From a virus (Duplodnaviria > Heunggongvirae > Uroviricota > Caudoviricetes), in IMG/VR virus record IMGVR_UViG_2585427777_000009, positions 1 to 5,591 of that record: a stretch of DNA of 5,591 nt; one strand, given 5' to 3'. The position numbers and the translations under genes were made by a program. A model generated the notes under the pieces. It had not been told where the DNA came from. It saw only the letters and a program-made list of their open reading frames with translations, and did not search any database. The first letter of the stretch is position 1; each line of letters begins with the position of its first letter. Below are positions 1 through 5,591 of the stretch, in pieces.

Positions 1-17
1 ACCTTGGTTTAAGAGAA
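1..17. other. Left crossover site in inverted orientation, truncated by the window start (central TT at positions 4-5)
   Basis: Positions 1-17 (ACCTTGGTTTAAGAGAA) are the exact reverse complement of 5114-5130. The outer 9 bp of the site would lie left of the window. Confidence 0.65.
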
Positions 18-148
18 CTCGGTACCAGCGGTGAAAAGATCCCCCTGTTGAGTACGGCTAACACATGGAGTGCGCGCCAGACTTTCAACGGCGGGATCAC
101 CGGGGCGCTGACAGGGAACGCCGACACCGCGACGAAATTAAAAACAGC
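1..148. repeat. Left arm of the segment-flanking inverted repeat (pairs with 4983-5130)
   Basis: Hand-aligned reverse complement of 4983-5130 matches 1-148 with 3 mismatches (positions 53, 107, 140), all third-codon-position synonymous changes. Similarity drops to protein level only beyond 148. Confidence 0.9.
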
Positions 149-2237
149 CATAAACATTAATGGCGTCAGGTTCGATGGTTCGGCTGACATTACGTTGACT
201 CCTAAAGATCTGGACGTTTACAGCAAAAGCGAAATAGACAATAAAAAAGGGATGAGAAAATACACTTTTTCAGCGCCTGCAAATGCAGTAAGCGGTAAGT
301 GGTATCCTATAGTCTTTCGCCGATCTAGAGGCAGTACCGATGAATTAGCCTCACGAGTTGTGATAACTACTTATTCCTCAGCTGGCGGATACGCCATGAA
401 TAATTGTGAATTTAATGGTTTTGTTATGCCTGGCGGTTGGTCTGATCGCGGTTCATATGCGGCTGGTTTTTTCTCAATATATTCTACTGCTGAGCGAGCT
501 ATACACTCGATTATTTCAAGTGTGAAAGATGACGATTTGTGTAGTGTGTTTTACGTTGAAGCCAGAGCATTTCCTATCAAGATATTTGCTGAGGAGGGCT
601 TGAACGTAATTGTTCCAACTACTGACTATACCGTTGGTCAAGCCACCTATAAGTGGGGGGCCACAGATCCAGTAGCAGAAAGTACAAATACTCAAACCAT
701 TCTGGATTTTAAAAATGGACGTGGTTATTACTGCTCACATCAGTTTGTTTCAAGCCTTTCAGGAAATGCAGCAACAGCAACGAAATTAGCAAGTTCAATA
801 AACATAGGTGGTGTATCCTTTGATGGTTCAGCCGATATAGATTTGCCTGGTGTTAATGCGACTGGTAATCAGAACACCACGGGGAATGCGGCGTCTGCCA
901 CGAAATTACAAACGGCAAGAACCATTGGTGGCGTTTCATTTGATGGCTCCGCCAATATCAACCTGCCGGGCGTGAATATTGCTGGTAGCCAGAACACGAC
1001 TGGTAATGCTGCAACCGCAACGAAACTTCAGACGGCCCGCACAATAGGCGGCGTGTCATTCGATGGTAGTGCCAATATCGACCTGCCAGGTGTGAATAAA
1101 ACAGGTAATCAGAGCACAACCGGTAATGCTGCAACTGCAACAAAACTGCAAACAGCACGCACAATAGGCGGCGTGTCATTCGATGGCTCCGCCAATATCA
1201 ACCTGCCGGGTGTAAACATTGCTGGTAACCAGAACACAACCGGTAATGCAGCGACAGCGACCAAGTTACAAACCGCTAGAACTATAAATGGGGTGTCGTT
1301 TGACGGTTCTAAAAACATTGAGCTAACTCCAAGGTCTATAGGCACGATCAACTCAGCAACAATGTCTTTTAGTGGTGGTGCCGGATGGTTCAAGCTGGCA
1401 ACTGTAACCATGCCACAAGCCAGTTCCGTGGTTTACATAAGCCTGATTGGTGGCGCAGGGTTTAACGTTGGCTCCCCGCAGCAAGCAGGCATCTCTGAGC
1501 TGGTTCTGCGTGCAGGAAATGGGAACCCCAAAGGTATTACTGGTGCATTATGGCGACGGACCTCGGTTGGATTTACTAATTTTGCATGGGTGAATACATC
1601 CGGTGATACCTATGACATTTATGTAGAAATAGGTAATTACGCCACAGGTGTTAATATCCAGTGGGATTATACCAGTAACGCCAGCGTAACGATTCATACA
1701 TCACCAACTTATACAGCGAATAAACCAACAGGCCTGACAGATGGAACTGTATATGTAATTTACAGTTCGCACATTAAACCGACTGCTGCTGATGTTGGGG
1801 CGTTATCATTATCTGGAGGTCAATTGAATGGTGCACTGGGCATCGGTACATCCAGTGCTCTTGGCGGTAACTCGATTGTTTTGGGTGATAATGACACGGG
1901 CTTTAAACAAAATGGCGACGGTAATCTGGATGTTTATGCTAATAACGTCCATGTTATGCGCTTTGTCTCCGGTAGCATTCAAAGTAATAAAACCATAAAT
2001 ATTACGGGGCGTGTTAATCCCTCGGATTACGGTAACTTTGATTCCCGCTATGTGAGAGATGTCAGACTTGGCACACGTGTTGTCCAGACCATGCAGAAAG
2101 GGGTGATGTATGAGAAAGCAGGGCATGTAATTACAGGGCTTGGTATTGTCGGTGAAGTCGATGGTGATGACCCCGCAGTATTCAGACCAATACAAAAATA
2201 CATCAATGGCACATGGTATAACGTCGCACAGGTGTAG
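1..2237 (+). CDS. Tail fiber protein, alternative variable C-terminal cassette (Sv'-like), silent in this orientation; 5' end is the crossover site and it has no start of its own
   Basis: Frame is open from position 3 ([22 protein letters not shown]...), identical to the minus-strand fiber across the inverted repeat. The TTG at 48 used by the ORF track is not a real start. Contains repeated [32 protein letters not shown] fiber-shaft motifs and a C-terminal [26 protein letters not shown]...NGTWYNVAQV module shared with the other fiber. Stop TAG at 2235-2237, followed 3 nt later by a tfa gene. Confidence 0.85.
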   Translation, partial: LGLRELGTSGEKIPLLSTANTWSARQTFNGGITGALTGNADTATKLKTAININGVRFDGSADITLTPKDLDVYSKSEIDNKKGMRKYTFSAPANAVSGKWYPIVFRRSRGSTDELASRVVITTYSSAGGYAMNNCEFNGFVMPGGWSDRGSYAAGFFSIYSTAERAIHSIISSVKDDDLCSVFYVEARAFPIKIFAEEGLNVIVPTTDYTVGQATYKWGATDPVAESTNTQTILDFKNGRGYYCSHQFVSSLSGNAATATKLASSINIGGVSFDGSADIDLPGVNATGNQNTTGNAASATKLQTARTIGGVSFDGSANINLPGVNIAGSQNTTGNAATATKLQTARTIGGVSFDGSANIDLPGVNKTGNQSTTGNAATATKLQTARTIGGVSFDGSANINLPGVNIAGNQNTTGNAATATKLQTARTINGVSFDGSKNIELTPRSIGTINSATMSFSGGAGWFKLATVTMPQASSVVYISLIGGAGFNVGSPQQAGISELVLRAGNGNPKGITGALWRRTSVGFTNFAWVNTSGDTYDIYVEIGNYATGVNIQWDYTSNASVTIHTSPTYTANKPTGLTDGTVYVIYSSHIKPTAADVGALSLSGGQLNGALGIGTSSALGGNSIVLGDNDTGFKQNGDGNLDVYANNVHVMRFVSGSIQSNKTINITGRVNPSDYGNFDSRYVRDVRLGTRVVQTMQKGVMYEKAGHVITGLGIVGEVDGDDPAVFRPIQKYINGTWYNVAQV
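762..1331 (+). repeat. Tandem 120-bp in-frame coding repeats (40-aa phage fiber-shaft repeat), about 4.75 copies
   Basis: Units at 762-881, 882-1001, 1002-1121, 1122-1241 and a partial unit 1242-1331. Each encodes [40 protein letters not shown]. Exact nucleotide runs of about 30 bp recur between units (e.g. cgcacaataggcggcgtgtcattcgatgg at about 1037 and 1157). Confidence 0.9.
2040..2237 (+). repeat. Internal diverged inverted repeat: conserved fiber C-terminal module (pairs with 3332-3529)
   Basis: The last ~65 codons of the two fibers are about 85% identical at nucleotide level by eye and about 90% at protein level (DSRYVRD(V/I)[18 protein letters not shown]...NGTWYNV(A/S)QV). Confidence 0.8.
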
Positions 2238-2240
2238 TTT

Positions 2241-2768
2241 ATGCAGCATTTAAAAAATATTACTGCGGGTAATCCAAAAACTGTTGCCCAGTATCAACTG
2301 ACAAAAAATTTTGATGTTATCTGGTTATGGTCCGAAGAGGGAAAAAACTGGTATGAGGAAGTAAGTAATTTTCAGGAAGACACGATAAAGATTGTTTACG
2401 ATGAAAATAATATTATTGTCGCCATCACCAGAGATGCTTCAACGCTTAACCCTGAAGGTTTTAGCGTTGTCGAGGTTCCTGATATTACTGCCAACCGACG
2501 TGCTGATGACTCAGGTAAATGGATGTTTAAGGATGGTGCCGTGATTAAGCGGATTTATACGGCAGACGAACAGCAGCAACTGGCAGAATCACAAAAGGCA
2601 ACTTTGCTTTCCGAAGCCGAATCCGTGATTTTGCCGCTGGAGCGCGCTGTCAGGCTGAATATGGCAACAGATGAGGAACGCAGCCGACTGGAAGCATGGG
2701 AACGCTACAGCGTTCTTGTAAGCCGCGTGGATACGGCAAAGCCAGAATGGCCACAAAAACCTGAGTAA
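2241..2768 (+). CDS. Tail fiber assembly chaperone (Tfa; Mu U / lambda Tfa family), partner of the plus-strand fiber cassette
   Basis: 175-aa ORF starting at ATG 2241, 3 nt after the fiber stop. N-terminus [41 protein letters not shown] with internal [18 protein letters not shown] and C-terminal PEWPQKPE are recalled from memory as typical of enterobacterial phage Tfa proteins. N-terminal ~105 aa are ~75% identical to the minus-strand paralog. Stop TAA at 2766-2768 is followed by a hairpin terminator. Confidence 0.85.
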
Positions 2769-2772
2769 AAAT

Positions 2773-2796
2773 AAGGCCCGATAACGGGCCTTTTCT
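2773..2796. terminator. Bidirectional rho-independent terminator between the convergent tfa genes
   Basis: 8-bp stem (aaggcccg 2773-2780, complementary to cgggcctt 2785-2792) with loop ataa. It is flanked by T-runs on both strands (ttttct on plus; tattttt on minus, from 2764-2772). It lies between the plus tfa stop (2766-2768) and the minus tfa stop (2796-2798). Confidence 0.6.
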
Positions 2797-3329
2797 CATT
2801 CTGGTTGTTCGGGAAACGTTACTGGCAGGCTGGAGGTGTCTGTAGATTCGACTTTCTGCGCATAGAGCATCCACTCGGTTAATTTTTGTTTATTCTCGTC
2901 GGAAATGATGCCCAGCCGTAGCTGTGAGTCCCATAGCTGGGTTTTATCCCTGACAAGTTGCAACAGGCTTTGCTTTTCATTCTCTGCCTGCTGCCTCTGT
3001 TCCTCCTCGGTATAAGTTCGCTTTATCACTACGCCATCTTTGAACATCCATTTCCCCGAAATATCAGCCCGGCGATTTGCTGTAATATCAGGCAACTCAA
3101 CGACACTTAAACCTTCTGGATTAATTGCCGATACATCTTTATCCATAGCAACAATTATTCCATCTACAGTGTAAGCCAGTTTTATTGTATCTTCCTGAAA
3201 GTTTTTCACTTCCTCATACCAGTTTTTTCCATCTTCGGACCATAACCAGATAACATTAAAATTCTTTGTTAGCTGATATTGTTCAACGGTTTTTGGATTA
3301 CCTGCGACAATGTTTTTTAAATGCTGCAT
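2796..3329 (-). CDS. Tail fiber assembly chaperone (Tfa; Mu U / lambda Tfa family), partner of the minus-strand (expressed) fiber
   Basis: 177-aa ORF. Its ATG (complement of 3327-3329) lies 2 nt after the fiber stop (3332-3334). N-terminal half is a paralog of the plus-strand Tfa ([41 protein letters not shown]); the C-terminal ~70 aa are divergent. Ends in ...PEQPE, with the stop at 2796-2798 abutting the central hairpin. Confidence 0.85.
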
Positions 3330-3331
3330 GA

Positions 3332-3529
3332 TTATACCTGCGATACGTTATACCATGTTCCGTTAATTAACTTTTGTATTGGTCTGAATACTGCCGGATC
3401 ATCGCCATCAACTTCACCGACAATGCCAAGCCCCGTAATTGCATGACCTGATTTCTCATACATCACGCCTTTTTGCATAGTCTGAACAACACGTGTGCCC
3501 AGGCGAATATCTCGTACATAGCGAGAATC
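3332..3529 (-). repeat. Internal diverged inverted repeat: conserved fiber C-terminal module (pairs with 2040-2237)
   Basis: See the partner feature at 2040-2237. Confidence 0.8.
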
Positions 3530-5591
3530 CGATTCAGCTTTGGTATATGCACCAACATCCCCCGCAGAGGGTTTGCGGGTTGTGGTGTAAAACTCTGACC
3601 AGTTAGCTTCAAAGCCATAACCATCACGCGCTGAACGATAAAAGATACCGCCGTTCTTATAATTCACGCGGAACTGTACAGCAGGGCAACTCCCCGCATT
3701 CATATTGAAGTGGAGGATTAATGTCGATGCACCACTGATATCTGCATCATAAACACCGCTATTCCAGTTCCAGCCAACAGCTTTATCATTTGCAACCCTG
3801 CTTCCTGTTTGCCCTAAAGCGAATGCAGGCTGCTGGTTTTTCGTGTTGTAGTCTCGTCGCCAGCCAGGAGCATAAGCATCACCATGATTAATATAAGTGA
3901 ATTGAGCGTTAGTGATGCCGCCTCCGGTGGAAGTGCTTGGTGTTGTTACACGGATGGTCATGGCACCTTTATTGCCCATAACTTCAATAACGCAACCCGC
4001 AAGGTGAATAAGTCCACATCCGGTGTCAGTAATAATTTTATTATTGCCGTATGACCATGAGCATTTACACATCCAGTATGGATGATTGAAGGCCCACTGA
4101 GATTCCAGCCATTCAATAAATTGCGCCGTCGTCCAGTTTCCTGCACCTGTGCTAATAGAGCCATGAAAAGAGCGGCAAGCACCTATTGTTTGCGTAAATT
4201 TATCTTTGTTTGGAATATCTGCGCCGTTCTGGTTTTTCTGTAATGCTCCTGCGGCTAATTCTACAGTTTGCTCAAGATTTAAATCTGCCGCCGTTAGCTC
4301 AATATTTTTAGAACCATCAAACGACACCCCATTTATAGTTCGAGCGGTTTGTAACTTGGTCGCTGTCGCTGCATTACCTGTTGTATTCTGATTGCCAGTG
4401 GCATTAACACCAGGTAAATTAATATTCGCAGTACCATCAAAGCTAACTCCGCCGATAGTTCTTGCCGTCTGTAGTTTTGTAGCGGTCGCTGCATTGCCAG
4501 TTGTATTCTGATTGCCAGTGGCATTCACACCAGGAATGGAGTCCCTTGATGTATAGACCTGCGCCCAATCTGACCATGCAGCATCTGTTGTATCCCTACG
4601 GGAACGAATGAATGCCGGTGCATGTGCGCCACTTGTACCACTCCACCCAATAAGCAACTCTCCCTCACCAGCAGCACTCGCCCCTTTCATATGCAGAACA
4701 TTGCCGAATGATGTTGGGTAACTATTGCTATATGCTTCATACATTTGAATACCAGCAGTACCCTGAGTAGAGCCACTTAACGCCGTTACGGGCCCGCGTG
4801 ATACCAATGTATTAATGTTGATATCGCCTGAGCCATCAAACTTAACACCATTGATGTTTCTCGCCGTCGCAAGTTTTGTCGCGGTAGCAGCATTCCCCGT
4901 GGTGTTCTGGTTACCAGTTGTATTTACACCTGGAAGATTGATATTGGCCGAGCCATCAAATGCCACACCGCCAATAGTGCGTGCTGTTTTCAATTTCGTC
5001 GCGGTGTCGGCGTTCCCTGTCAGTGCCCCGGTGATCCCGCCGTTGAAAGTCTGGCGCGCACTCCATGTGTTAGCCGTGCTCAACAGGGGGATCTTTTCAC
5101 CGCTGGTACCGAGTTCTCTTAAACCAAGGTATTGGATAACGGCCAGTGTGCTTGTTTTAGCCAGAATATCGCGACCGACTGACGTTAAATCAGTCTGCGC
5201 TACCGTATCCTTACCAGTGAAATAAGGCAGTTTGTTTGCACCAGTCGCAAGGGCAGCGAGCGCGGTTAAAGTTGCATCCAGAGGCTGTTTGCCTGCCAGC
5301 GCATTTGTCATTGTTGTCGCAAAGTTCGGGTCATTGCCCAGTGCTGCTGCAAGCTCATTCAGGGTATCAAGAGCTTCAGGTGATGAGCCGACCAATGCAG
5401 AGATAGCAGCTCTTACATAAGCGGTCGTAGCAATCTGCGTGTTATTCGTACCCTGTGCAGCGGTAGGCGCAGTAGGTATTCCCGTTAATGCAGGACTTGC
5501 TAAAGGCGCTTTAAGGGCCAGAGCATTGTTGATAGTTGTGCTGAAATTCGGGTCGTTATTGATCGCAGCCGCTATTTCTTTCAGCGTATCC
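3332..5591 (-). CDS. Tail fiber protein in the expressed orientation: conserved N-terminal region (continues beyond the right window edge) fused in frame to a variable C-terminal cassette; 5' partial
   Basis: The minus-strand frame stays open upstream of the TTG at 5395 chosen by the ORF track, to the window end (my translation of 5396-5461: ...[22 protein letters not shown] then [25 protein letters not shown]), which is a typical phage tail-fiber N-proximal motif. It crosses the crossover site at 5114-5139 in frame. It contains two blocks of fiber-shaft repeats and a Cys/Trp-rich distal domain, and ends ...[65 protein letters not shown]. Confidence 0.9.
4292..4537 (-). repeat. Two tandem 120-bp fiber-shaft repeats in the minus-strand fiber (aa ~287-368)
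   Basis: Direct repeats are visible on the plus strand (gcattacctgttgtattctgattgccagtggcattaacaccagg at about 4370 and gcattgccagttgtattctgattgccagtggcattcacaccagg at about 4490). Translation gives [21 protein letters not shown](G/N)GVSFDG twice. Confidence 0.8.
4808..5017 (-). repeat. First block of fiber-shaft repeats in the minus-strand fiber (about 1.75 units), partly inside the flanking inverted repeat
   Basis: Encodes [40 protein letters not shown] followed by [30 protein letters not shown]. The counterpart motif in the plus-strand module is at about 114-203. Confidence 0.75.
4983..5130. repeat. Right arm of the segment-flanking inverted repeat (pairs with 1-148)
   Basis: See left arm. 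The repeat extends outward into the crossover site (to 5139), whose left-hand counterpart is outside the window. Confidence 0.9.
5114..5139. other. 26-bp DNA-invertase crossover site (hix/gix/cix family), right copy: TTCTCTTAAACC-AA-GGTATTGGATAA
   Basis: Imperfect palindrome of two 12-bp half-sites around a central AA dinucleotide (5126-5127). It closely resembles hixL (TTCTTGAAAACCAAGGTTTTTGATAA) and gixL (TTCCTGTAAACCGAGGTTTTGGATAA) as I recall them. It sits exactly at the outer boundary of the inverted repeat and inside the fiber reading frame. Confidence 0.75.

Follow-up and report, generated by a model that had tools for sequence, protein, structure and literature searches.

The centre of the stretch of viral DNA analysed here (hereafter the window, taken at its full length of 5,591 nt) raises the question of why two convergent tail fibre genes should end in closely similar sequences, followed by tail fibre assembly (Tfa) genes that are alike in their first halves and unlike in their last parts. 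An earlier note, made from the letters of the window, described this centre as a diverged palindrome around a bidirectional terminator, and its estimates by eye are borne out by measurement. Positions 2040-2587 match the reverse complement of 3529-2983 in a single blastn HSP (79.4% over 548 nt; E = 5e-137, far beyond chance), and a repeat search finds the same arms as 197 nt at 84% and 347 nt at 77%. The fibre C-termini, put at about 85% nucleotide identity, are 83.8% identical in an ungapped comparison (2040-2237 versus the reverse complement of 3332-3529), and the Tfa N-terminal halves, put at 75-80%, are 77.3% identical (2241-2570 versus the reverse complement of 3000-3329, ungapped). The divergence seen beyond these stretches likewise holds in the protein alignments that the note had proposed, in which the last 66 aa of the fibres are 91% identical and the preceding 134 aa 17%, and Tfa residues 1-115 are 77% identical and those from 116 to the end 27%. 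Differences between the two window tails are mostly synonymous (dN 0.048, dS 0.90), and the fibre tail is, judged from these alignments, under strong purifying selection. What the note missed is that the window as a whole represents a P1-type C-segment invertible by Cin, and that the unusual element within it is the similarity of the two tails, which is a recombinant feature.

Segment architecture and the cix sites

The locus is of an ordinary, known kind: a P1/Mu-type invertible host-range switch with two back-to-back cassettes of fibre tip and chaperone. More precisely, we put a probability of about 0.85 on the reading that the window is the Cin/cix invertible C-segment of a P1-like phage-plasmid and that the "diverged palindrome" is the centre of that segment. 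The features concerned are as follows (positions in the window).

1-17, no strand: cixL, of which the window edge leaves the inner half; crossover TT at 4-5
3-2237, plus: Sv, the putatively silent alternative variable part of the fibre, with a reading frame open at the left window edge (ORF translation)
2040-2237, plus: S-type fibre tail, last 65 codons and stop, aligning to the Mu S C-terminus
2241-2768, plus: U-type tail fibre assembly protein, 175 aa (Caudo_TAP; Mu U match)
2773-2792, no strand: bidirectional intrinsic terminator hairpin, 8-bp stem with 6 GC pairs and a 4-nt loop
2796-3329, minus: chimeric Tfa, 177 aa; residues 1-45 U-type, ~46-65 a third variant, 66-177 U'-type
3180-3535, minus: D108 S-U-type recombinant tract inside an S'/U' cassette, comprising the tail and Tfa codons 1 to ~45
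3332-3529, minus: S-type fibre tail on an S'-bodied fibre (nucleotide and amino acid alignment, sliding identity)
3332-5590, minus: putatively expressed fibre gene, the 3' part of Sc fused to Sv', open to the right window edge
3530-4285, minus: Mu-S'-like receptor-binding body (PDB 8JU3 match)
5114-5139, no strand: cixR, the 26-bp Cin crossover site (TTATCCAATACCTTGGTTTAAGAGAA, identical to the annotated P1/P7 cixR); central TT at 5126-5127

The crossover points at 4-5 and 5126-5127 delimit a Cin segment of ~5.12 kb. The first 20 nt of the window (ACCTTGGTTTAAGAGAACTC) are the inner half of the P1/P7 cixL and cixR, and across its first 148 nt the window matches the reverse complement of 4983-5130 at 98% identity. 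The remainder of cixL and the invertase gene cin fall outside the window and are found in a contig (L091) that is 99.875% identical to it over all 5591 nt. This contig has cixL in full, immediately preceded by the cin stop codon; its 186-aa ORF with Resolvase and HTH_7 domains ends at window position 0, followed by the P1 genes lydB and darA, and R and gp16 lie on the other side of the segment. A Fis-dependent recombinational enhancer is annotated within the invertase gene of P1 and P7, a position that falls outside the window. Both orientations of the segment occur among relatives 94-97% identical to the window, two contigs (L087 and L090) being opposite to a third (L089) relative to cin and Sc. 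The gene order (cixL, Sv', U', U, Sv, cixR, Sc) runs collinear to that annotated for the P1 and P7 C-segments.

The two cassettes are convergent, with a minus-strand ORF open from 5590 through cixR to 3332 (translation of 5100-5590 meets no stop) and a plus-strand ORF open from the window start to 2237. The full-length S called on L091 has 1076 aa, and a 729-aa product of the plus-strand fibre part is called on L088, L091 and L092; Sv has no start codon of its own and would therefore be fused to Sc after inversion. Each cassette consists of a fibre variable part, a 3-nt gap and its own Tfa gene, and both end at the common hairpin terminator. Transcription would be limited to the cassette in frame with the constant fibre part Sc, in the window the minus-strand Sv'-Tfa, and Cin acting at the cix sites would flip the segment and so exchange receptor-binding tip and chaperone together, by analogy with P1 and Mu. 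A promoter scan inside the segment gives one site versus 9.7 expected, with nothing relevant, and this sparseness fits expression from an external late promoter.

The bidirectional terminator proposed in the earlier note is recovered as a hairpin that is terminator-like on both strands (AAGGCCCG-ATAA-CGGGCCTT, flanked by an A-run and a T-run), lying in the 27-nt gap between the two stop codons and folding at -18.1 and -20.3 kcal/mol (z = -4.1 and -5.3). At the corresponding position the D108 record has two rho-independent terminators annotated, and the stop-to-stop spacer is 27-28 nt in all 59 of 59 distinct convergent pairs.

Tfa domains and probable chaperone docking

Both window Tfa proteins match Pfam Caudo_TAP (PF02413; 120.6 bits for the left and 117.8 bits for the right, cut-off 22.1). 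The left one matches Mu U over its full length (PDB 5YVQ chain B, E 1.8e-103), and the left fibre tail aligns, with gaps, to residues 424-503 of chain A, the Mu S C-terminus. The earlier note suggested that the conserved fibre tail is a chaperone-docking module, and published work on Mu agrees: by homology to the S-U complex in 5YVQ, docking would take place between the final ~66 residues of the fibre and the N-terminal domain of Tfa. The note also held the Tfa pattern to be at odds with a C-terminal domain that contacts the fibre. As far as secondary descriptions of North et al. 2019 and North & Davidson 2021 go (PMC9608196, PMC10579305, PMC11915804), this assignment of the domains is reversed. 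The N-terminal domain of TfaMu is described there as binding the distal fibre tip and its C-terminal helical domain as mediating oligomerisation (PMC9608196, citing North et al. 2019). Binding of the N-domain to the C-terminal region of the fibre, and a need for the chaperone in fibre folding, are known from this literature for Mu. Since in TfaMu it is the N-domain that contacts the fibre, co-conservation of the fibre tail and the Tfa N-half is what would be expected, and the window pattern thus fits current knowledge of Tfa chaperones from the Mu S-U work.

Nor is a conserved N-terminal and a diverged C-terminal part special to this window, as the comparison of U with U' in P1, D108 and pS51_2 gives 70-74% for the Tfa N part and 26-29% for the C part, so that the pattern is the standard relation between the two types. 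It would arise because the C-terminal ~60 aa, probably a helical hairpin serving as oligomerisation domain, exist in two old flavours, U and U'. AF2 models the chimeric Tfa with a two-helix hairpin at residues 108-161 (pLDDT 86-96), the N-domain staying below pLDDT 50 with the two-sequence, window-only alignment used. With these findings the puzzle raised by the earlier note is closed: the pattern agrees with what is known of Tfa, and as an invertible host-range switch the locus is of the textbook type.

Across the family, the fibre tail varies most, followed in order by Tfa 1-45, Tfa 46-115 and Tfa 116-end (the last within each C flavour). Mantel-type correlations of tail distance with Tfa segment distance (r = 0.78, 0.66 and 0.63) trend in the expected direction but are confounded by the two dominant types and by adjacency on the DNA, and are therefore no evidence of co-evolution. 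Tail type also associates with the type of Tfa 1-45 across cassettes, an association confounded by the physical adjacency of both stretches. The constant pairing of S-type tails with U-type Tfa 1-45, next to a Tfa 46-177 of either flavour, may amount to a natural domain-swap experiment; if it does, tail-type specificity would lie within Tfa residues 1 to ~45, and the remainder of the protein would be interchangeable between fibres. The C-terminal domains are distributed differently from the tails and N-domains, which exchange freely in convergent pairs: each of the 59 distinct pairs (59/59) combines one U-type with one U'-type C-domain, ~29% identical at the nucleotide level. This centre could be kept heterotypic by selection, as a long palindrome with near-perfect arms would be a target for cruciform formation or SbcCD, and palindrome avoidance in invertible segments is in this sense a small testable idea. 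Taken together, these two readings, tail specificity in Tfa 1-45 and palindrome avoidance at the centre, are rather doubtful.

Mosaic structure of the minus-strand cassette

What is non-canonical in the locus is a natural recombination, by which one of the cassettes has the fibre-tail type of the other. The right fibre matches PDB 8JU3 (Mu S/S') with E 3.7e-153 in an alignment that is visibly poor over the last ~65 aa, and its homology to Mu S' does not extend over the whole length, in that these residues diverge and are of D108-S type instead; with an S' body and a D108-S-type tail it is therefore a hybrid and not a plain S' orthologue. In 60-nt windows at ~3383-3499 (~115 nt) the right tail is 100% identical to D108 S, compared with 38-55% to the S' of D108 and P1, and no residue differs between its last 66 aa and the tail of Yersinia phage vB_YpM_5. 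With megablast, similarity to P1, P7 and Mu S' ends at ~3543 and that to D108 S-U begins at 3529. Sliding nucleotide identity then follows the D108 S-U type to ~3180 and the D108 U' type, at 98-100%, from ~3140 to 2796; the intervening Tfa residues (~46-65) resemble a third variant, as in contig L107. Judged from these breakpoints, the right cassette is a mosaic of a Mu-S'-like body, a D108-S-type tail with Tfa codons 1-45, and U' thereafter, in which the D108-S-type tail and the first ~45 Tfa codons would have taken the place of a canonical S' tail and U' start. The two window tails are unusually similar because the right cassette is a product of homologous recombination, and the shared tail is the non-canonical element because canonical S and S' tails (P1, D108, pS51_2) are only 38-41% identical. 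The route could have been gene conversion from one arm to the other in an ancestor of Mu-like type, or else a crossover of two cassettes that both had S' bodies.

The same breakpoints bear on the alternative of vertical descent, in which an ancestral cassette was duplicated and then held similar by strong purifying selection without recent recombination. Such descent is in keeping with the low dN/dS of the tails and with the homology of S/S' tails and U/U' N-domains everywhere, including common motifs such as RPIQ..INGTWYN, but it is very unlikely and largely refuted by the breakpoints: where this S' body has its canonical S' tail, that tail shares little with S tails, the perfect match to D108 S switches sharply on both sides, and similarity to P1, P7 and Mu S' breaks off exactly at the edge of the tail.

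The chimera occurs elsewhere in seven phage records (among them Yersinia vB_YpM_5/6 and four E. coli phages), in 39 of 5426 E. coli genomes and in three plasmids. A 511-nt probe spanning body, tail and Tfa is 100% covered in 39 complete E. coli genomes, vB_YpM_5/6, vB_EcoM-12474II-V and the three plasmids, and independent assemblies with 94-99.9% identity to the window likewise contain the chimeric junction. Inverted repeats are known to cause misassembly, and a mis-joining of them might have produced such a junction; its recurrence in complete genomes, isolated phages, plasmids and independent assemblies leads us to reject this explanation, the probability of which is practically negligible.

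The earlier note further regarded the inverted homology as a possible substrate for invertase-independent rearrangement. As far as the past is concerned this stands, in that homologous exchange within the gene family is evident from the mosaic structure of the cassettes as read from their alignments. An active role, with RecA-mediated inversion of the centre swapping the Tfa genes or their C-halves, would draw on the 548 nt of inverted homology and might be tolerated with the same tail type on both fibres, yet we consider it unlikely. The arms are only 77-84% identical and their longest exact runs are 23-25 nt, a length at or below the minimal efficient processing segment for E. coli recombination, so that a present-day RecA crossover should be inefficient. 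Moreover, the chimeric cassette is found with several different partners and therefore moves as a module and is not made by local inversion, and among 90 convergent pairs from the sampled loci there are no central-inversion isomers (0/90; Tfa or Tfa-C flavour swapped relative to the fibre bodies).

The recombinant origin of the right cassette also maps natural recombination joints, one at the body/tail boundary (~3530-3543) and one within Tfa codons ~45-65. Since isolated phages have viable fibres with these joints, the joints are useful splice points for engineering, applicable to P1-, Mu- and P2-type fibres and their chaperones for retargeting.

Comparison with known systems

Among the closest known systems is the C-segment of P1 and P7, which shares with the window the gene order, an identical cixR, Sc outside the segment, two convergent Sv-Tfa cassettes of U and U' type with a common terminator, and the adjacent cin (the last in the near-identical contig L091). 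The P1 segment is shorter (4.2 kb versus ~5.1 kb), and only ~50% of the window aligns to P1/P7 by megablast, at 84-88%. The window differs from both in its left fibre body, in a cix-proximal inverted repeat of 184 nt (90%) that gives way to fibre repeats of 120 nt, and in having an Sv' fibre with an S-type rather than an S'-type tail and a Tfa that is a U/U' chimera.

With the G-segment of Mu and D108 (gin, S, U, U', S') the window shares the terminator arrangement, a U that corresponds to Mu U and an S' body that matches 8JU3, and window positions 2026-4246 are 84-86% identical to the G-segment centre of D108 and P88. However, the context of the window is P1-type (cix, Sc, cin), and the S' of D108 keeps a canonical S' tail that is 39% identical to the S tail. 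In the Mu S-U complex (PDB 5YVQ), the chaperone is a near-identical homologue of the left window Tfa and the domain logic matches the conservation pattern, whereas the Mu S tail is another tail variant that aligns with gaps; the structure covers Mu S-U, and what is known here of the chimeric Tfa and of an S' body bearing an S-type tail comes from sequence.

A close relative of the mosaic itself is the G-segment of the Yersinia Mu-like phage vB_YpM_5 (MT374853), with a collinear 2.9-kb match to window 1337-4224 at 90.6%. This phage has the chimeric cassette, with a 66-aa tail identical to that of the window and a Tfa of the same U/U' make-up, in a different setting, a Mu-like phage of 37 kb with a short constant fibre part. 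Its own two tails are 98-100% identical over ~115 nt, compared with 84% for the two tails of the window, which suggests that the tails of vB_YpM_5 were homogenised more recently than those of the window.

Identity and architecture of the locus

By its sequence, the entire window is a P1-type invertible C-segment. It runs collinear with the C-segments annotated in P1, P7, D6, and RCS47, and its central part matches Mu-like phage G-segments. Every defining feature of a Cin/Gin-type invertible fiber segment that was tested is present. In the P1 and P7 records the features run in the order cin (invertase gene), cixL, Sv', U', U, Sv, cixR, Sc (constant fiber part), where cixL and cixR are the Cin crossover sites, S and S' are alternative fiber types, and U and U' are their tail fiber assembly (Tfa) proteins. 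The corresponding features are:

Position 1: cixL, the window starting inside the site
Window start to 2237, plus strand: silent fiber part Sv, open frame without its own start
2773-2792: hairpin AAGGCCCG-ATAA-CGGGCCTT between both stop codons, flanked by an A-run and, opposite it, a T-run
Right window edge through cixR to the stop at 3332, minus strand: expressed fiber, Sc fused to Sv', open frame
5114-5139, minus strand: cixR, TTATCCAATACCTTGGTTTAAGAGAA, identical to cixR of P1 and P7

A contig from an NCBI assembly (L091) is 99.875% identical to all 5591 nt of the window; its 186-aa Resolvase/HTH_7 gene terminates exactly at window position 0, with the P1 lysis and dar genes past it and R and gp16 at the other end. 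In a set of 5,426 complete E. coli genomes, the top match lies on a P1-like plasmid and reaches 89% identity over only 85% of the window, indicating that this particular mosaic is uncommon, although the kind of element is not. In closely related P1-like contigs, the C-segment is flipped relative to cin and Sc (L087/L090 versus L089), and these are natural inversion isomers. A cix-proximal inverted repeat (1-184 versus 4947-5130; 184 nt, 90%) is 98% identical over its first 148 nt, with a longest exact run of 53 nt, and the arms diverge beyond it.

Both fibers contain 120-nt (40-aa) tandem repeats (759-1312, plus strand, 5 copies; 4291-4534 and 4817-5020, minus strand, 2-3 copies), which add 71-80% inverted homology between the arms (repeat families D1-D4, I2, I3, and I6-I11); Pfam Phage_fiber_2 is found in related full-length S proteins. 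The non-repeat globular inserts amid these repeats (185-760, plus strand; ~4540-4815, minus strand) differ between the arms, and a Pfam search of both returned nothing above threshold. The left distal body (1337-2039, plus strand) resembles phage S16/T4 gp37-type trimerisation regions only weakly (PF20744, 18 bits, below cut-off; PDB 6F45, E 5e-6). Two metagenome contigs (L088 and L092) encoding a 1340-aa S are 99.2% identical to window 1-3827 and give no megablast match to 3828-4985, which places a further mosaic breakpoint near 3827, inside the S'-like body.

Central inverted homology and the Tfa proteins

The diverged palindrome that the earlier note described at the centre is correct, and its architecture was already known. 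Its estimates by eye, ~85% nucleotide identity for the fiber C-termini and 75-80% for the Tfa N-halves, agree with ungapped values of 83.8% (2040-2237 versus the reverse complement of 3332-3529) and 77.3% (2241-2570 versus 3000-3329). A repeat search found the same two arms (I4, 197 nt, 84%; I1, 347 nt, 77%), and a single blastn alignment spans both (2040-2587 versus 3529-2983; 79.4% over 548 nt, E = 5e-137). At the protein level, the tails are 91% identical across the last 66 residues, with nearly all substitutions synonymous (dN 0.048, dS 0.90), while the 134 residues preceding them are only 17% identical, bearing out the described divergence of the distal fiber domains. Identity between the two Tfa proteins is 77% in residues 1-115 and drops to 27% from residue 116 onward. 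The proposed bidirectional terminator scores terminator-like on both strands (2773-2792; folding energies -18.1 and -20.3 kcal/mol, z = -4.1 and -5.3 versus shuffles).

Caudo_TAP membership, a tested mark of TfaMu-type chaperones, is clear for both Tfa proteins, and the left one matches Mu U along its full length (PDB 5YVQ chain B, E 1.8e-103). The earlier note took the conserved N-half to run contrary to expectation, on the view that the Tfa C-terminal domain contacts the fiber; this view reverses the published roles, and the apparent paradox stems from that reversal. PMC9608196, which cites North et al. 2019, describes TfaMu as docking on the distal fiber tip through its N-terminal domain, with the conserved C-terminal helical domain mediating oligomerisation and assembly; a statement in PMC10579305 has Tfa remaining attached at the fiber tip in virions. 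Joint conservation of the fiber tail and Tfa N-half is thus expected from the published model. The same split separates U from U' in P1, D108, and pS51_2 (N part 70-74% identical, C part 26-29%), so the window's pattern is ordinary and consistent with the literature. An AF2 model built on a shallow alignment gave confident helices in the C-terminal part only (108-139 and 144-161).

Across 170 distinct fiber-Tfa cassettes (173 loci), the Tfa C-domain has only two flavours, and within each, variability declines from the fiber tail through Tfa 1-45 and 46-115 to 116-end, a gradient that fits the "variable N, conserved C" description. The IMG/VR loci L095-L121 hold at least three more tail variants (...GSQQYYGVNNWQTWNF..., ...GGASSYKPANNG..., ...GSIEYKNVWRDYGF...), each with its own Tfa N-terminal variant and a common U-type C-domain; both C flavours are found with one tail type (U' in L007, U in L108).

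A recombinant right cassette

The unusual feature of the window is the tail common to both fibers. In P1, D108, and pS51_2, S and S' tails are just 38-41% identical, the S' tail reading ...SRFITGIRLGG...NAGSI and the S tail ending ...NVAQV. The expressed fiber has an S-type tail on a Mu-S'-like body (PDB 8JU3, E 3.7e-153); it is not a plain Mu S' orthologue, as the S' homology does not extend through its tail. Sliding nucleotide identity divides the right cassette into zones:

Above ~3545: S' body type
3529 to ~3180: tail and Tfa codons 1 to ~45, D108 S-U type (100% identical to D108 S in windows across ~3383-3499)
~3200-3140: neither type, resembling the third Tfa variant of locus L107
~3140 to 2796: U' type, 98-100% identical to D108 U'

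In megablast, alignments with canonical S' genes stop at ~3543 and those with D108 S-U start at 3529; together with the zones, these breakpoints identify the right cassette as a recombinant. The same recombinant occurs in Yersinia phages vB_YpM_5 and vB_YpM_6, E. coli phages vB_EcoM-12474II-V, 39 of the 5,426 E. coli genomes, three P1-like plasmids, and, with varying partner cassettes, several IMG/VR contigs. This recurrence marks the cassette as a circulating module rather than a product of misassembly or of a local accident. Along ~115 nt the two tails of vB_YpM_5 share 98-100% identity, a sign of probable gene conversion from one arm to the other in a Mu-like ancestor. An identical product would come from a crossover joining an S'-body/S-tail/U cassette to a canonical S'/U' one; 25 cassettes of the S'-body/S-tail/U kind were seen, every one unpaired.

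Rearrangement and comparison with known phages

The earlier note raised the inverted homology as a possible substrate for invertase-independent rearrangement. These genes clearly carry the marks of homologous exchange. No product of a central inversion was found: in none of 90 convergent pairs were Tfa genes or C-halves swapped relative to the fiber bodies. Exact identity in the central arms extends for at most 23 and 25 nt, inside 77-84% identical DNA, and in E. coli RecA-dependent crossover should therefore be rare. Each of the 59 distinct convergent pairs has one C-domain of U type and one of U' type (~29% nucleotide identity) across a spacer of 27-28 nt. This may be mere shared ancestry of the core; more speculatively, it could reflect selection against long, perfectly palindromic arms set close together.

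Compared with known phages, the left distal body (1337-2039) shares ~90% nucleotide identity with the left cassette of vB_YpM_5. Both Tfa genes of the window are intact, whereas the P7 record lists its U-side Tfa (3409-3942) as a pair of ORFs, Ua and Ub, so that this gene is apparently split. The sole new detail is the natural swap of tail and Tfa N-terminus, which is already present in sequenced phages.
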